Below are positions 11,609 through 15,120 of a DNA stretch of 64,000 nucleotides, in pieces; position 1 is the stretch's first letter, and every line of letters starts with the position of its first letter. The notes under the pieces were generated by a model. The model was given only the letters and a program-made list of their open reading frames with translations. It was not told the DNA's origin and ran no database searches. Location: assembly GCA_029862005.1 (NCBI GenBank), contig JAOTYD010000003.1:70158-134157 (forward strand), written 5' to 3'. This DNA comes from Gammaproteobacteria bacterium (GTDB taxonomy: Bacteria > Pseudomonadota > Gammaproteobacteria > GCA-001735895). The position numbers and the translations under genes are program-made.

Positions 11609-12711
11609 TACTTAACCGATACATTATTCGCACGATTCACCTCGGAACCTTTACTTCGCTACTGGCACTGGTTGGCCTCGGCCTGTTTTTTCTTTTTGTC
11701 GGTGAGCTCGATGATCTTGGTGATGGAAAATATGATTTCCAACAAATCCTCAAGTTCGTAGCACTGAGTTTTCCGGGAAAAGTTGTCGAATTCATGCCGC
11801 TCGCAGCTCTGCTCGGCAGCATGCTCGGGTTGGGTGCGCTGGCCAGCAATAGCGAGATTATTGCGATGCAGGCTTCCGGACTCTCACTGAGGAAATTGGT
11901 CAGTCCGGTCGTACAGGCAGCGGTAATATTAGCGGTGCTTAATTTTTTGCTGGCGGACTGGGTGGTTCCGGATAGCGAGACTTACGCGCGCAATGTCAAG
12001 AATCTTGCACAGGAAAAAACCTCGGCGTTGCTTGTCAGGGAAGGACTCTGGACCAAGGATGAGTCGAGGGTATTACACATCGGGCAACTTCTACCAAATG
12101 GAGTCGCGCGTGATATCGAGATATTCGAGCTTGATAACAAGGGAAGACTGTTCTCTGTGCTCAAAGCAGAGCGTGCCATTCCCCTGGAGCAGGGATGGGA
12201 GTTACACCGGATCCAGAAGTCGATAATCAGTGATAATCAAGTCGAGACGCTGCGCTATGACCAGCTGGTCTATGAAGGCAACTTGTCACCCCAGTTGCTT
12301 GAGGTGTTGATGATAGAACCGAGGCAAATGTCGAGTGGTGATTTACGTGCCTACCTTAACTTCCTGGAGGAGAACAGGCTCGACGGCAGGGTTGAGCGTC
12401 TGATTTTCTGGCAGAAAATTTTGGCACCTTTTACCATTGTTGTCATGTGCCTGCTGGCGTTTCCGTTTGTGCTCGGGTCTCAACGCCAGGGCAACACGGG
12501 GCAGCGTCTGCTGATCGGAATACTGCTGGGTTTGGCATTTGTGGTTGTCGATCGGCTGGTGATACAGCTGGGGAACCAGTTTGAAGTCAATGCGCTGGCG
12601 ATTGCACTGATACCCAGCCTGGCTTTTCTCGGAATTGCGGTTTACATGTTGTTAAAGAACCAGTCCCATGGGCCCGGTGGTAGATTACTTTTTAGCCCGA
12701 TCAAAGCCTGA
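11605..12711 (+). CDS. lptG: LPS export ABC transporter permease LptG
   Basis: LGALASNSEIIAMQASG, FWQKILAP; ATGA overlap with lptF. Confidence 0.95.
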   Translation: MILNRYIIRTIHLGTFTSLLALVGLGLFFLFVGELDDLGDGKYDFQQILKFVALSFPGKVVEFMPLAALLGSMLGLGALASNSEIIAMQASGLSLRKLVSPVVQAAVILAVLNFLLADWVVPDSETYARNVKNLAQEKTSALLVREGLWTKDESRVLHIGQLLPNGVARDIEIFELDNKGRLFSVLKAERAIPLEQGWELHRIQKSIISDNQVETLRYDQLVYEGNLSPQLLEVLMIEPRQMSSGDLRAYLNFLEENRLDGRVERLIFWQKILAPFTIVVMCLLAFPFVLGSQRQGNTGQRLLIGILLGLAFVVVDRLVIQLGNQFEVNALAIALIPSLAFLGIAVYMLLKNQSHGPGGRLLFSPIKA

Positions 12712-13128
12712 AATGTCGATAATGCTGGTCTGACTGAGTTTATCGTGCCAGGTGTAGGGCTTGAAAAGTCGCCAAAAATAGCCAAGACCAAAACACAGTA
12801 TCGAAACCAGGGCAAAAGCAAGGCGCAGGTAACTGCTACCCCAACCCGGATTGCCACCGGACTCGGCGACAATACGAATTTTCCATGCCCGCATTCCCAG
12901 GGTTTGTCCTGATCTGTGCCAGAACCAGGCATAGAATGAAAACAGGATGAACAACAGGTAAAGACTGAACAGAGGACTTGATTCGATCGCTTCACCGCGG
13001 TTGAAGATTAGCGCAATTGCAGTTGAAAAAAAAAGCACTGCAAAAATTAATAAACTGTCATACAACATGGCCGCAAATTGTTTGAACAAACTTGCAGGAG
13101 GGTAGCCATGATAAAAATTGGTTGTCAT
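12685..13128 (-). CDS. RDD family membrane protein
   Basis: AAMLYDSLL and GQTLGMRAWKIRIV...WHDKLSQT motifs; usual neighbour of lptG. Confidence 0.92.
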   Translation of the reverse strand: MTTNFYHGYPPASLFKQFAAMLYDSLLIFAVLFFSTAIALIFNRGEAIESSPLFSLYLLFILFSFYAWFWHRSGQTLGMRAWKIRIVAESGGNPGWGSSYLRLAFALVSILCFGLGYFWRLFKPYTWHDKLSQTSIIDISGFDRAKK

Positions 13129-13340
13129 AACTTTTATTGATTGCGTTTAAGACACATTCAAATTGAAAGAATTCATGTTGATAAAACTAATGAAAAATTT
13201 CATACTATTTTTTTGTCAGACAACTATAATACACGACGTAACTCAGTTCGTAGTGTTTGCAATTAGTACCAACTTGCTATTGTATTATTGTGGATGCTTT
13301 TTTTAATCACATTCGTAAGTCAACGTGAGGAGACCGGACG

Positions 13341-13883
13341 ATGGCGACAGCAAAGAGAGCAGCAAAGTCGAAACCAAAAGCTAAATCTGCAGCAAAGAAA
13401 AAAGCAAGGAAGCCCGCAGTAAAAAGGAAAGCAGTTAAGAGACCCGCGACCAAAAGGAAAGCGGTTAGGAAGTCAGCAGTAAAGAAGAAGGCAGTTAAGA
13501 GACCGGCGGCTAAAAGGAAAGCGGTCAAAAAGTCAGCAACAAAGAAGAAAGCAGTTAGAAGACCCGCGGTCAAGAAGAAGGCGGTCAAAAAGTCAGTAGC
13601 GAAGAAGAAGGCAGTTAAAAGACCCGCGGCCAAAAAGAAGGCGGTCAAAAAGTCAGCAGTAAAGAGGAAAGCGGCTAAGAGACCGGCGGCCAAGAGGAAA
13701 ACGGCTAAGAGACCGGCGGCCAAGAGGAAAGCGGCTAAGAGACCGGCGGCCAAGAGGAAAGCGGCTAAGAGACCGGCGGCCAAGAGGAAAGCAGTTAAAA
13801 GAGCCGCGCCCAAAAGGAAAGCGGTAAAAAGACCGGCAGCTAAGAAAAGGGCGACTCGTTCCGCTACAAAAAAAAAGCGGTAA
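13341..13883 (+). CDS. Histone H1-like Lys/Arg/Ala-rich DNA-binding protein (0-frame product, 180 aa)
   Basis: GAGGAG RBS; about 16 ten-residue units like KRKAVKRPAA; AT-rich upstream region. Confidence 0.85.
   Translation: MATAKRAAKSKPKAKSAAKKKARKPAVKRKAVKRPATKRKAVRKSAVKKKAVKRPAAKRKAVKKSATKKKAVRRPAVKKKAVKKSVAKKKAVKRPAAKKKAVKKSAVKRKAAKRPAAKRKTAKRPAAKRKAAKRPAAKRKAAKRPAAKRKAVKRAAPKRKAVKRPAAKKRATRSATKKKR
13391..13850 (+). repeat. 30-nt period coding tandem repeat
   Basis: Four near-identical units GCGGCTAAGAGACCGGCGGCCAAGAGGAAA at 13671-13790, with more diverged units on both sides. Confidence 0.9.
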
Positions 13884-14149
13884 AGCCTAAAGTTAAGAAG
13901 CGACCCACTGCAATAAAGAAGGCTGCCGCTAATCCAAGGATCAAGGCGCTTGATGATACAGTCAAAACCTTGAAAGAGCAGGTACAGGGATTAAGGAATG
14001 AAGTTCGTGACGCCAAAAGGCGTGCCGATGCCCTGGGTAAGTTATCTGACAAGAGAGGCGCTGCTATCTCAAAATTTGTGTATGGATGGGATAAGCAGGC
14101 CAAATTGGCGGTTACCAGGTCTACGAGGCCACGAACGAAGAAAAGGTAA
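13877..14149 (+). other. Unannotated -1 frame continuation (90 codons) of the histone-like protein
   Basis: AVKPKVKKRPTAIKKAAANPRIKALDDTVKTLKEQVQGLRNEVRDAKRRADALGKLSDKRGAAISKFVYGWDKQAKLAVTRSTRPRTKKR*; no start codon near its 5' end; begins right after an A9 run. Confidence 0.8.
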
Positions 14150-14178
14150 TTGATCTTCATGTTTGGCAAAATATTAAC

Positions 14179-14204
14179 AGGCACAGTAAGCTGTGCCTTT
14201 TTTT
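14179..14204 (+). terminator. Rho-independent terminator
   Basis: AGGCACAG-TAAG-CTGTGCCT followed by T6. Confidence 0.85.
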
Positions 14205-14208
14205 ATCA

Positions 14209-15120
14209 ATGAAAAAAACTTCCATGCAACCTGGCGATCCGGAAATCGAGCGCTTTATCGATAGCCTTTGGTCGCAAAAAGGTTTGGCTGATCGAACGCT
14301 GAGTGCCTATCAGCAGGACATGCGCCAGTTTTCGCGCTGGCTACAGACGCGGCAACAAAAGCTGCAAAATGCCGAGCAGTCAAGTATCCAGCATTTTTTA
14401 GCTGAACGCTTTGATCAAGGCGCCTCAGCACGTTCCAACGCTCGCCTGTTGTCGACCCTGAAACAATACTATCGATATTTAATCAAGATCGGGGATCGCC
14501 AGGACAATCCCACCGCTTTAATCAGTGCGCCCAGGATTCATCGAACCTTGCCGCAGTCGCTCACCGAAAGCGATGTTGAAAAGTTATTGGCCGCTCCGAA
14601 CCTTGAATCCAATTTTGGTCTTCGGGATCGCGGTATGCTCGAGCTTATGTACAGCTCCGGGCTGCGTGTCAGTGAACTGGTGGGCCTGCAAGTGAACCAG
14701 GTAAATACCAATCTCGGTCTGGTGCGGTTGGTCGGGAAAGGTAGCAAGGAGCGGGTTATTCCCGTCGGTGAGGAAGCATTACACTGGCTCGCACAGTATC
14801 TGAAGAGTTCACGCCCCGGTTTGCTGCAGGGGCATGTGAACAATGATGCGCTGTTTATATCGAGTCGCGGTACCGCGATTACGCGTCAGGCGTTCTGGCA
14901 AAATATCAAGAAGTACCTGCTCAAGGCGGGCGTTAAAACTGTTTTTTCGCCACACTCGTTGCGCCATGCGTTTGCCACGCATTTGCTTAATCATGGTGCG
15001 GATTTACGCACGGTACAGATGTTGCTCGGGCACAGCAGCCTGTCGACAACGCAGATTTATACGCACATCGCCCAGGCACGCCTGCAATCACTTCACGCCG
15101 AACACCATCCCCGCGGCTAA
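14209..15120 (+). CDS. xerD: Site-specific tyrosine recombinase XerD
   Basis: LRDRGMLELMYSSGLRVSEL, GKGSKER, SPHSLRHAFATHLLNHGADLRTVQMLLGH, TTQIYTH. Confidence 0.96.
   Translation: MKKTSMQPGDPEIERFIDSLWSQKGLADRTLSAYQQDMRQFSRWLQTRQQKLQNAEQSSIQHFLAERFDQGASARSNARLLSTLKQYYRYLIKIGDRQDNPTALISAPRIHRTLPQSLTESDVEKLLAAPNLESNFGLRDRGMLELMYSSGLRVSELVGLQVNQVNTNLGLVRLVGKGSKERVIPVGEEALHWLAQYLKSSRPGLLQGHVNNDALFISSRGTAITRQAFWQNIKKYLLKAGVKTVFSPHSLRHAFATHLLNHGADLRTVQMLLGHSSLSTTQIYTHIAQARLQSLHAEHHPRG

Follow-up and report, generated by a model that had tools for sequence, protein, structure and literature searches.

A conserved frame break at an A_AAA_AAG site in an H1-like gene of marine Gammaproteobacteria probably gives rise to two protein isoforms

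In an uncultured marine gammaproteobacterium, a lysine-rich, histone-H1-like gene comes to a stop codon just behind a run of adenines, and the -1 frame stays open past that stop for most of 300 nucleotides. Is the second frame a relic of a broken gene, a product of faulty assembly, or a protein domain that is still expressed through a change of frame? The locus sits on the forward strand of a 64-kb stretch of DNA (the window), between an RDD-family gene and xerD, a tyrosine recombinase gene (14209..15120, + strand) which was used as the syntenic anchor for finding orthologous loci. The genome is not AT-rich (GC content 52.8%). The neighbouring RDD gene of the same genome keeps an in-frame T9. 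The 0-frame ORF (13341..13883, + strand) extends from ATG 13341 to TAA 13881-13883, ends in ...GCT ACA AAA AAA AAG CGG TAA, and encodes the short isoform, 180 aa of histone-H1-like Ala/Lys/Pro/Arg repeats. Its basic domain is built from a 30-nt unit (10 aa, roughly KRKAVKRPAA) that is repeated in tandem about 14 times, as delimited by Tandem Repeats Finder at 13409..13837 (+ strand). Two family models scored below threshold against it: HC2 (PF07382) reached 16.3 bits versus a cut-off of 40, and NF038053 (hist_H1_lk_Burk) reached 25.1 bits versus a cut-off of 80. The likeness to these families is one of composition. Scans of Pfam and NCBIfam with the fused protein and with the extension produced only sub-threshold coiled-coil or compositional matches. 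A protein search with the low-complexity N-terminal protein returned no match at E<=1e-10, a threshold that is too strict for sequence of such biased composition.

The layout of the shift site can be read directly from the sequence, and it is as the earlier note had described. The A9 run occupies 13868..13876 (+ strand) and could serve as the template on which one extra A is inserted during transcription. The slippery heptamer A_AAA_AAG lies at 13871..13877 (+ strand) in the register of the 0 frame, with AAA in the P site and AAG in the A site. A TAA at 13841..13843 (+ strand) closes the -1 frame on the upstream side of the shift site. The frame reads EKGDSFRYKKKAVKPKVKKRPTAIKKAAANPRIKALDDTVK... 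after 13843 and is open from 13844 to 14146. The -1 ORF proper (13877..14149, + strand) consists of 90 sense codons (13877-14146, starting from GCG 13877) and the TAA at 14147-14149, and its translation runs from a basic linker through a long helix to a Lys/Arg tail. The first ATG, GTG or TTG in this frame is the TTG at 13970, which agrees with the claim that no start codon is nearby. An intrinsic-terminator-like hairpin followed by T7 (14179..14205, + strand; hairpin 14179-14198, 8 bp, 5 of them G-C) is conserved in L001-L003. As also claimed before, it is placed 3' of the -1 ORF, so that a single transcript spans both frames. The trans-frame product would have 179 + 90 = 269 aa, with the junction ...SATKKK-AVKPKVKKRP..., and the two isoform sizes of 180 aa and about 269 aa given earlier therefore stand.

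By itself, the heptamer is no more than expected by chance. The word AAAAAAG occurs 22 times in the window versus 10.8 expected, and a genome-wide avoidance of the heptamer was rejected. There are 38 in-frame copies of A_AAA_AAG in 37 intact orthologous genes, because these genes are rich in Lys runs. What goes beyond chance is the conservation, across relatives, of the break, the heptamer and the downstream frame. Another candidate, the CGG behind the heptamer as a hungry codon, was also rejected, since CGG ranks third in usage among the Arg codons of 24 long ORFs in the window. A host with tRNA-Lys (UUU) as its single tRNA-Lys would have a shift-prone AAG; no tRNA gene was found within the 64-kb window.

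The 90-codon extension is homologous to a C-terminal domain that is encoded directly upstream of xerD in about 40 loci. In these more distant orthologs, the repeats and the helix form one continuous ORF of 145-260 aa. By this homology, the extension is the genuine C-terminal domain of the family. AlphaFold2 predicts a single long alpha-helix over extension residues 20-83 (13934..14125, + strand), with pLDDT >90 over the helix. In the family alignments, this helix shows heptad-spaced I/L/V/A residues followed by the motif KRxxA(I/V)xxF(V/L)xxWDxxA, and it is a candidate coiled-coil or oligomerisation domain. A PDB profile search with the C-terminal domain found generic coiled coils alone, with E above 1e-3, and the domain has no relative in Pfam, NCBIfam or PDB. 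When the extension alone was used as the query of a word-indexed protein search, just one fragment was matched. Gene callers truncate or mis-call the whole family, reporting either an ORF antisense to the repeats or a fragment of 59-66 aa. As a result, no database model covers the family, and annotations do not show its C-terminal domain.

Eight assemblies of the close clade span the junction: the window, two NCBI MAGs (L002 and L003), and ENA assemblies L105, L106, L107, L108 and L111. They amount to 7 distinct sequences from at least 3 projects. The close members were obtained via the 90% XerD cluster, and a metagenome scan added no further ones, the best identity being 67%. The frame break is present at the identical column in 8/8 assemblies, while XerD dS between the sequences is 0.16-0.61. 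The 0-frame ORF is intact in the window, L105, L107 and L108, and the start MATAK(K/R)AAKSKPKAKS is kept in all four. The A-run itself is A9 in the window, L105, L106, L107 and L108, A8 in L002 and L111, and A6 in L003. These differences are due to substitution: ACA/GCA AAA AAA AAG makes A9, GCT AAA AAA AAG makes A8 and AGA AAA AAG makes A6. The heptamer is invariant in 7/7 distinct sequences. It opens an 18-nt invariant cassette, AAAAAAGCGGTAAAGCCT (13871..13888, + strand), composed of A_AAA_AAG and 11 nt downstream, that is, the 0-frame end CGG TAA and then AGC CT. In the 395-nt alignment of the 7 sequences, this cassette is the longest invariant run (18 nt versus 9 nt for the next). In L002, L111 and L003 the upstream stop of the -1 frame abuts the heptamer, and the two frames overlap over the heptamer and CGG alone. 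L003 has an additional 14-nt deletion near the start codon, and from its sequence it may be a dying copy. If so, it provides a weaker argument for conservation of the heptamer without a long run.

These comparisons bear on two alternatives that the earlier note had raised. The first is that the break is a homopolymer sequencing or assembly error and the true sequence is A10. Homopolymers are error-prone on some platforms. Here, however, the same break recurs across 8 assemblies, which come from at least 3 projects, and in A9, A8 and A6 contexts, and the window shows no general gene fragmentation. Since L003 has A6 and yet the same break, this explanation is effectively excluded. The second is phase variation at the DNA level, in which replication slippage between A9 and A10 would turn ON the long form in a subpopulation of cells, through which selection would act. 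Homopolymer tracts of 8-9 nt are indeed mutable, but 0/8 assemblies are ON: although the samples are different, all are in the same out-of-frame state. Moreover, the tracts differ by substitutions rather than by length changes, and the A6 of L003 would be poorly mutable. We consider phase variation very unlikely. The outcomes that the earlier note had named as speaking against its proposal, an A10 fixed in the genome or continuous ORFs in close orthologs, were not found within the clade, where all 8 assemblies carry the break.

Is the second frame still translated, or is it decaying? A unitary pseudogene should carry the signature of neutral evolution, with dN/dS about 1 and a build-up of indels and stops, and the -1 ORF does not. 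It has 90 codons in 7/7 sequences, with zero indels and zero stops in 7 x 270 nt, versus a 3' intergenic stretch that is 32% invariant and contains indels. In the -1 frame, dN/dS (w) is 0.34 (95% CI 0.22-0.59; P(dN>=dS)=0.002; three independent pairs), versus 1.38 and 0.96 when the same stretch is read in the wrong frames. The helix part has a dN/dS of 0.24. At the nucleotide level, the -1 ORF has diverged at about 40% of the synonymous rate of its neighbours, and in a neutral simulation at the XerD synonymous rate the probability that just 3 lineages stay open is P=0.01. These estimates indicate that the -1 reading frame is under purifying, protein-level selection. A first test, a permutation of substitution positions with 3 sequences, had not reached significance (P 0.1-0.3), and the 7-sequence analysis took its place.

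A fixed frameshift without any rescue would mean that the 180-aa protein alone is made and that the downstream ORF is an untranslated relic which has not yet decayed. Several data are consistent with this. Loss of one base in a poly-A Lys run is the likeliest spontaneous lesion and leaves exactly such a motif. Constraint is relaxed in the window's clade relative to the intact-ORF sister clade, where w on the C-terminal core is 0.06-0.11. The 3-sequence permutation test was not significant, and no convincing stimulator was found (see below). On the other hand, the low dN/dS is confined to the -1 frame, and indels and stops are absent there in contrast to the adjacent intergenic DNA. The low divergence and the neutral simulation point the same way. 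Positions that are conserved in the family also vary less within the clade (3/21 versus 9/23). We therefore regard the relic as unlikely.

If the extension is translated, it could in principle be made alone, from an internal start or through re-initiation behind the 0-frame stop. The TTG at 13970 opens a 59-aa ORF, and gene callers list such short ORFs in relatives (P0001). This TTG, which is codon 32 of the extension, is TTA in L002 and L111, however, and no other canonical start is common to the clade. In addition, the 31 codons from the shift site to the TTG are themselves selected in the -1 frame (dN/dS 0.35, P=0.006), and the predicted helix already begins 12 codons ahead of the TTG. P0019 and P0020, short ORF calls in L102 and L103, were rejected as gene-caller artefacts of intact long ORFs. 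Separate translation is thus highly improbable.

We infer that the domain is reached by slippage, and two routes have to be weighed. The best explanation is recoding at this site, giving 180-aa and 269-aa isoforms from one transcript; we put its probability at roughly three in four. Standard decoding would yield the 180-aa H1-like repeat protein ending at TAA 13881. In part of the expression events, the -1 frame would be entered at the A-run or heptamer (13868-13877) and 90 more codons read, so that the 269-aa product would gain the long C-terminal helix (coiled coil) that is ancestral to the family, and a basic tail. The helix may oligomerise and change the action of the basic domain on DNA or some other polyanion. 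The break would go back to the loss of one base in the Lys-codon run of the clade's common ancestor and would have been retained since. The common denominator would be tandem -1 ribosomal slippage of tRNA-Lys on A_AAA_AAG, a role given to it because the heptamer is invariant. Where both codons are read by one tRNA-Lys, no heptamer is more prone to shifting than A_AAA_AAG (PMC5009743). As a counterpoint, a one-base deletion in any Lys run leaves A_AAA_AAG by default. In most lineages, RNA polymerase adding one A on the A8-A9 run would be a probable contributor; the ribosomal and transcriptional routes would yield the same protein. The proposal of the earlier note, that a -1 shift at A_AAA_AAG adds a coiled-coil domain, is thus supported by a break fixed in the clade and by purifying selection behind it.

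A difficulty with a purely ribosomal route is the stimulator. At sites of the dnaX or IS3 type, this is a stable hairpin or pseudoknot lying 5-9 nt downstream, an SD-like sequence lying 10-14 nt upstream, or both. Single-sequence folds downstream of the heptamer were no better than shuffles (z +0.47 to -0.57), and no SD-like element was conserved at the right spacing, 10-14 nt upstream, in the clade alignment. An Rfam scan of 13100-14300 gave nothing near threshold and no frameshift element. The consensus fold suggests a putative bipartite helix, in which the 3' arm AAGGCUGCCGC (13920..13930, + strand) would pair with 13877-13888 (GCGGUAAAGCCU), its first base being the last base of the heptamer. 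Neither arm varies, apart from one mismatch in L108. Alignment folds of this helix showed no covariation, and a test of 4-fold sites in its arms was not significant (P=0.28). The statement that there is no strong stimulatory hairpin was therefore accurate. In E. coli reporters, heptamers free of stimulators shift 2-10 fold over a 0.055% background (PMC4066793), so that a purely ribosomal route might be very inefficient.

This leads to the possibility that transcriptional slippage is the main or even the sole route: RNA polymerase would add an untemplated A on the A8-A9 run, and the ribosome would play no special part. Since its products would be identical, this is a sub-variant of the explanation given above. 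A run of 8 or 9 A is kept in 6/7 distinct clade sequences, and the only A6 sequence, L003, is the one that carries a second lesion. The A9 subclade has swapped the preceding codon from ACA to GCA, which still ends in A. The failure to find a ribosomal stimulator, together with the weakness of unstimulated heptamers, also fits. Transcript slippage on such runs is in the range of 10-50%, about 50% on the A9 of Thermus dnaX and about 10% on the A8 of apoB (PMC1088944). However, the run length varies (9, 8, 6) while the heptamer and the next 11 nt are invariant, and slippage on the run leaves the conservation downstream of it unexplained. The in-frame T9 of the RDD gene further implies that 9-nt runs are tolerated in ordinary genes. 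As the principal route, transcriptional slippage is possible, if doubtful.

With recoding as the preferred reading, the split gene is a further case of an already known type. The closest parallel is E. coli dnaX (tau/gamma), a chromosomal, non-mobile gene with the identical A_AAA_AAG, a stop codon near the site in one frame, and isoforms that differ in a C-terminal domain. Its -1 shift is about 50% efficient. It differs in having an upstream SD-like stimulator and a downstream stem-loop, whereas no validated stimulator was found here; its shifted product is the shorter one, whereas here it is the longer; and the proteins are unrelated. The orfA-orfB arrangement of IS3/IS911 also resembles our locus: a short standard product is made, a start-less second domain is fused by a -1 shift on A_AAA_AAG towards the end of the first ORF, and only a short interval separates the stop codons of the two frames. 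The IS elements are mobile and have a stimulator in the form of a hairpin or pseudoknot, in contrast to the conserved housekeeping-type locus described here. An 8-9 nt A/T run at the frame junction is shared with Thermus thermophilus dnaX (A9), Shigella mxiE/spa13 and genes of Buchnera and Blochmannia. As in Shigella mxiE, the longer product requires one extra nucleotide. In the poly(A)-interrupted genes of Buchnera and Blochmannia, an ancestral indel in the poly(A) tract is likewise compensated during expression (PMC1088944, PMC5009743). In contrast to such transcriptional-slippage genes, the run length is not conserved here (A9/A8/A6) and the heptamer is, in a genome that is not AT-rich. The csoS2 gene (CsoS2A/B) similarly encodes a repeat-rich, basic scaffold-type protein made in two isoforms by -1 frameshifting in a chromosomal operon (PMC5009743), but there the frameshift product is the truncated form, efficiency (about 50%) and stimulator are documented, and the proteins are unrelated.

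At the protein level, Lys/Ala/Pro repeats in variable number are also seen in Chlamydia Hc2, Pseudomonas AlgP and the H1-like proteins of Burkholderia and Bordetella. The scores here are far below the cut-offs of the bacterial H1-like AKP-repeat families. AlgP and PhaF likewise combine such repeats with a helical domain, but in reversed order: in our gene the repeats are N-terminal and the helix C-terminal. To our knowledge, no frameshift is known in the Hc2, AlgP or Burkholderia/Bordetella H1-like genes. Conserved recoding is rare in chromosomal, non-mobile bacterial genes, the short textbook list consisting of dnaX, prfB, copA, csoS2, cdd and a handful of genes of secretion systems. In the present case, an ancestral single ORF would have become a two-frame gene and been kept as such through a synonymous divergence of about 0.2-0.6. 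The locus would thus show, in nature, how an indel in a slippery run that is compensated can turn into a fixed switch between isoforms. If the two forms differ in self-association, the shift site would also be a simple handle for work on the organisation of bacterial DNA or polyphosphate by basic, H1-like repeat proteins.

More tentatively, the 18-nt cassette, perhaps with a conserved partner AGGCUGCCGC located 43 nt downstream, could be a new compact recoding signal which fixes the isoform ratio of a nucleoid or polyanion-binding H1-like protein without a classical hairpin or SD stimulator, one form having the repeats only and the other a coiled coil capable of bridging. We regard this as a speculative and rather improbable reading. 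If it is true, the gene would be among the very few non-mobile bacterial genes whose ancestral full-length protein became a frameshift-dependent isoform pair, and frameshifting would tune chromosome or granule organisation in an uncultured marine gammaproteobacterial clade.

The 0-frame ORF of the histone H1-like gene runs on the forward strand from ATG 13341 to TAA 13881-13883 and encodes 180 aa, nearly all Ala/Lys/Arg/Pro repeats, in which a 30-nt unit recurs about 14 times (13409-13837). It ends in GCT ACA AAA AAA AAG CGG TAA, which contains an A9 run (13868-13876) and the slippery heptamer A_AAA_AAG (13871-13877) in the correct register for the 0 frame. The -1 frame is closed upstream by TAA 13841-13843 and continues from GCG 13877 for 90 codons, AVKPKVKKRPTAIKKAAANPRIKALDDTVKTLKEQVQGLRNEVRDAKRRADALGKLSDKRGAAISKFVYGWDKQAKLAVTRSTRPRTKKR, to TAA 14147-14149; TTG 13970 is its earliest canonical start codon. 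This -1 ORF is followed by a terminator-like hairpin with T7 (14179-14205) and then by the tyrosine recombinase gene xerD, which begins at 14209. If the frame shifts on the heptamer, the predicted trans-frame product has 179 + 90 = 269 aa. All these features had been described in the earlier note, and direct reading of the sequence bears them out. The presence of the heptamer alone carries little meaning: it occurs 22 times in the window, and 38 in-frame copies are found in 37 intact orthologous genes, because these genes abound in Lys runs.

Searches of Pfam, NCBIfam and PDB with the 90-codon extension revealed no relative. However, tblastn on 80 loci fetched by XerD and 19 metagenome loci, together with an exhaustive HMMER search, detected homologues directly 5' of xerD in about 40 uncultured marine Gammaproteobacteria. 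In all of the more distant loci (XerD 70-86% identical), the repeats and the C-terminal domain form one unbroken ORF of 145-260 aa, following the pattern MATAKKAAK...(AKP repeats)...ALKKQ(I/V)xGLKxxV..KRADALGKLSxKRGAAIAxFVSGWDxKA...KKKK. Since these orthologs encode the domain fused in frame to the repeats, the -1 ORF in the window is this gene's own ancestral C-terminal domain, shifted out of frame, and the extension is a real, conserved domain despite having no database relative. AlphaFold2, run on the family alignment, predicts one long helix (extension residues 20-83, pLDDT above 90). Hydrophobic residues in its first half are heptad-spaced, consistent with a coiled coil, and the helix may therefore oligomerise.

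The gene order, a reverse-strand RDD-family gene, the H1-like/coiled-coil gene and xerD (window 12685-15120), is kept throughout this group of uncultured Gammaproteobacteria (about 40 related loci); repeat number, and hence protein length (145-260 aa), differs widely between lineages. The H1-like protein scores under the cut-offs of the HC2 and Burkholderia H1-like family models. Opposite the AKP repeats, the antisense strand holds a long open frame; in the window it spans 168 aa (13307-13813, minus strand), and comparable frames lie at L102:720-1118 and L103:355-792 in two other family members. Gene callers often annotate this antisense frame, leaving only a 59-66-aa C-terminal fragment of the real gene; this choice accounts for the systematic mis-annotation and for the lack of a Pfam or NCBIfam family model. 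Of the 26 Arg codons in the window's gene (13341-13883), 24 are AGA or AGG, which are the two least used codons for Arg across 24 long ORFs of the window (2.7 and 4.2 per thousand); the mRNA of the gene is extremely purine-rich. The roughly 150 nt 5' of the start codon (13190-13340), with a TATAAT box near 13229, hardly differ between the window and L003, a related MAG locus, against a dS of 0.45-0.68 in neighbouring genes, which suggests a conserved promoter and long leader.

The earlier note had left room for a one-base assembly error, and had named conservation of the frame break in orthologs as a check. In the two nearest genomes, L002 and L003 (XerD 92%), the break falls in the same alignment column as in the window. 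A 90%-identity XerD cluster added five junction-spanning assemblies (L105, L106, L107, L108 and L111), and the same two-frame architecture is present in 8 of 8 assemblies (7 distinct sequences). The 0 frame ends in ACA AAA AAA AAG CGG TAA in the window and GCA AAA AAA AAG CGG TAA in L105, L106, L107 and L108 (both A9), in GCT AAA AAA AAG CGG TAA in L002 and L111 (A8), and in AGA AAA AAG CGG TAA in L003 (A6). A homopolymer sequencing or assembly error is thereby refuted, as it cannot give one and the same frame in three run contexts. The sequences were assembled in at least three projects, and XerD dS values of 0.16-0.61 indicate separate lineages. ON/OFF phase variation of the A-run is argued against by the lack of an in-frame state in any of the 8 assemblies. 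Four loci include the complete 0-frame ORF with no second lesion, and in each of them it is intact (180 or 190 aa).

L003 carries such a second lesion at L003:3167-3240, which aligns with window 13341-13420: the loss of 14 nt after codon 9 leaves MATAKKAAK and then a stop. An upstream G-to-A change creates an ATG (L003 3139) that shares the frame of the repeats. Possible readings are a compensated variant, a dying copy and an artefact of MAG assembly. Two other family members show lesions of their own. L092 differs from L091 only by the loss of 14 nt from the linker that precedes the coiled coil (L092:~440-460); this deletion splits the ORF and reflects either strain variation or an artefact of assembly. 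The distant L101 has an independent -1 break at GCA AAA AAA GAC (A7; L101:1060-1100), and the trans-frame sequence AVAKK|RPAVKK runs seamlessly across it. This break may be a second natural instance or a sequencing error, the latter because it is seen on a single JGI contig and the close relative L102 is continuous.

The -1 frame is probably still read as protein. It is exactly 90 codons long in all 7 sequences, with no indels or stops, while the 65 nt 3' of its stop are only 32% invariant and contain indels. By the Nei-Gojobori method over three phylogenetically independent pairs, its dN/dS is 0.34 (bootstrap 95% CI 0.22-0.59; P(dN>=dS)=0.002), and 0.24 for the helix alone, against 1.38 and 0.96 for the other two frames of the same nucleotides. 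When neutral evolution was simulated with the synonymous rate of XerD, only 1% of runs kept three such ORFs open. The constraint is lower than in one sister clade with intact ORFs (w 0.06-0.11) and falls inside the family range (w 0-0.45); the weaker constraint fits a domain carried by only part of the protein pool. Internal initiation within the -1 frame does not explain it: TTG 13970 is TTA in L002 and L111, no other start codon common to the 7 sequences was found, and the 31 codons from the shift site to this TTG are themselves constrained (dN/dS 0.35, P=0.006). A selected frame without a start codon must therefore be entered from the 0 frame, close to 13871-13880. In L002, L111 and L003, only the heptamer and CGG separate the -1-frame stop from the 0-frame stop.

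This comparative evidence supports the -1 shift proposed in the earlier note, and we put the probability of recoding at this site at about three in four. The longest invariant run in the 395-nt alignment of the 7 sequences is 18 nt, AAAAAAGCGGTAAAGCCT (13871-13888), starting at the first base of the heptamer; the runner-up is 9 nt. The bases just 5' of the heptamer, which set the A-run length, vary. Junctions were located via the motif GCGGTAAAGCC, which is missing from no locus with enough upstream sequence, so the search did not itself select for this conservation. No convincing stimulator was found: the clade alignment has no conserved SD-like element at dnaX spacing, RNA folds at the site are no better than shuffles, and an Rfam scan gave no match. 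A possible bipartite helix would pair 13877-13888 (GCGGU..AGCCU) with 13920-13930 (AGGCU GCCGC), which would place its inner 5 bp 6 nt 3' of the heptamer. The two arms are invariant except for one mismatch in L108; there is no covariation, and the synonymous-site test was not significant. The CGG after the heptamer was considered as a rare codon and rejected, CGG not being rare in this genome. A second nine-base run, T9 on the sense strand (13026-13034), codes in frame for L-F-F-S inside the neighbouring RDD-family gene (12685-13128, minus strand); evidently, ordinary genes of the genome can carry runs of this length.

Two established routes would give the identical protein. In the first, tRNA-Lys would slip by -1 in tandem on A_AAA_AAG, which shifts more readily than any other heptamer where one tRNA-Lys decodes both AAA and AAG (PMC5009743). 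In the second, RNA polymerase would insert one A on the A8-A9 run, as in Thermus dnaX, mxiE, apoB and endosymbiont poly(A) cases (PMC1088944, PMC5009743). We lean slightly, and tentatively, toward the ribosomal route as the common denominator, because the heptamer is invariant despite the varying run length. The transcriptional route is somewhat less likely as the main one; a contribution in the A9 and A8 lineages is favoured by the absence of a stimulator and by the poor efficiency of unstimulated heptamers in E. coli (PMC4066793).

The trans-frame sequence ...TKKK-AVKPKVKKRP... reads like one further repeat unit, so the simplest history would be that the common ancestor lost one A in a Lys run, that the loss was tolerated as the site slips, and that it was afterwards retained. 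Most of the protein would then be the short form, made of basic repeats alone, and a minority would be the long form that carries the coiled coil. By analogy with H1-like AKP proteins, the repeats may bind DNA or a different polyanion, for example polyphosphate (AlgP, PMC9239181), and a self-associating helix would turn a coating protein into a bridging protein. Recoding by a -1 shift, whether at A_AAA_AAG or on a poly(A) run, is a known type of event. The case predicted here would be unusual in having no obvious stimulator, in affecting a non-mobile gene and in turning an ancestral single ORF into a pair of isoforms.
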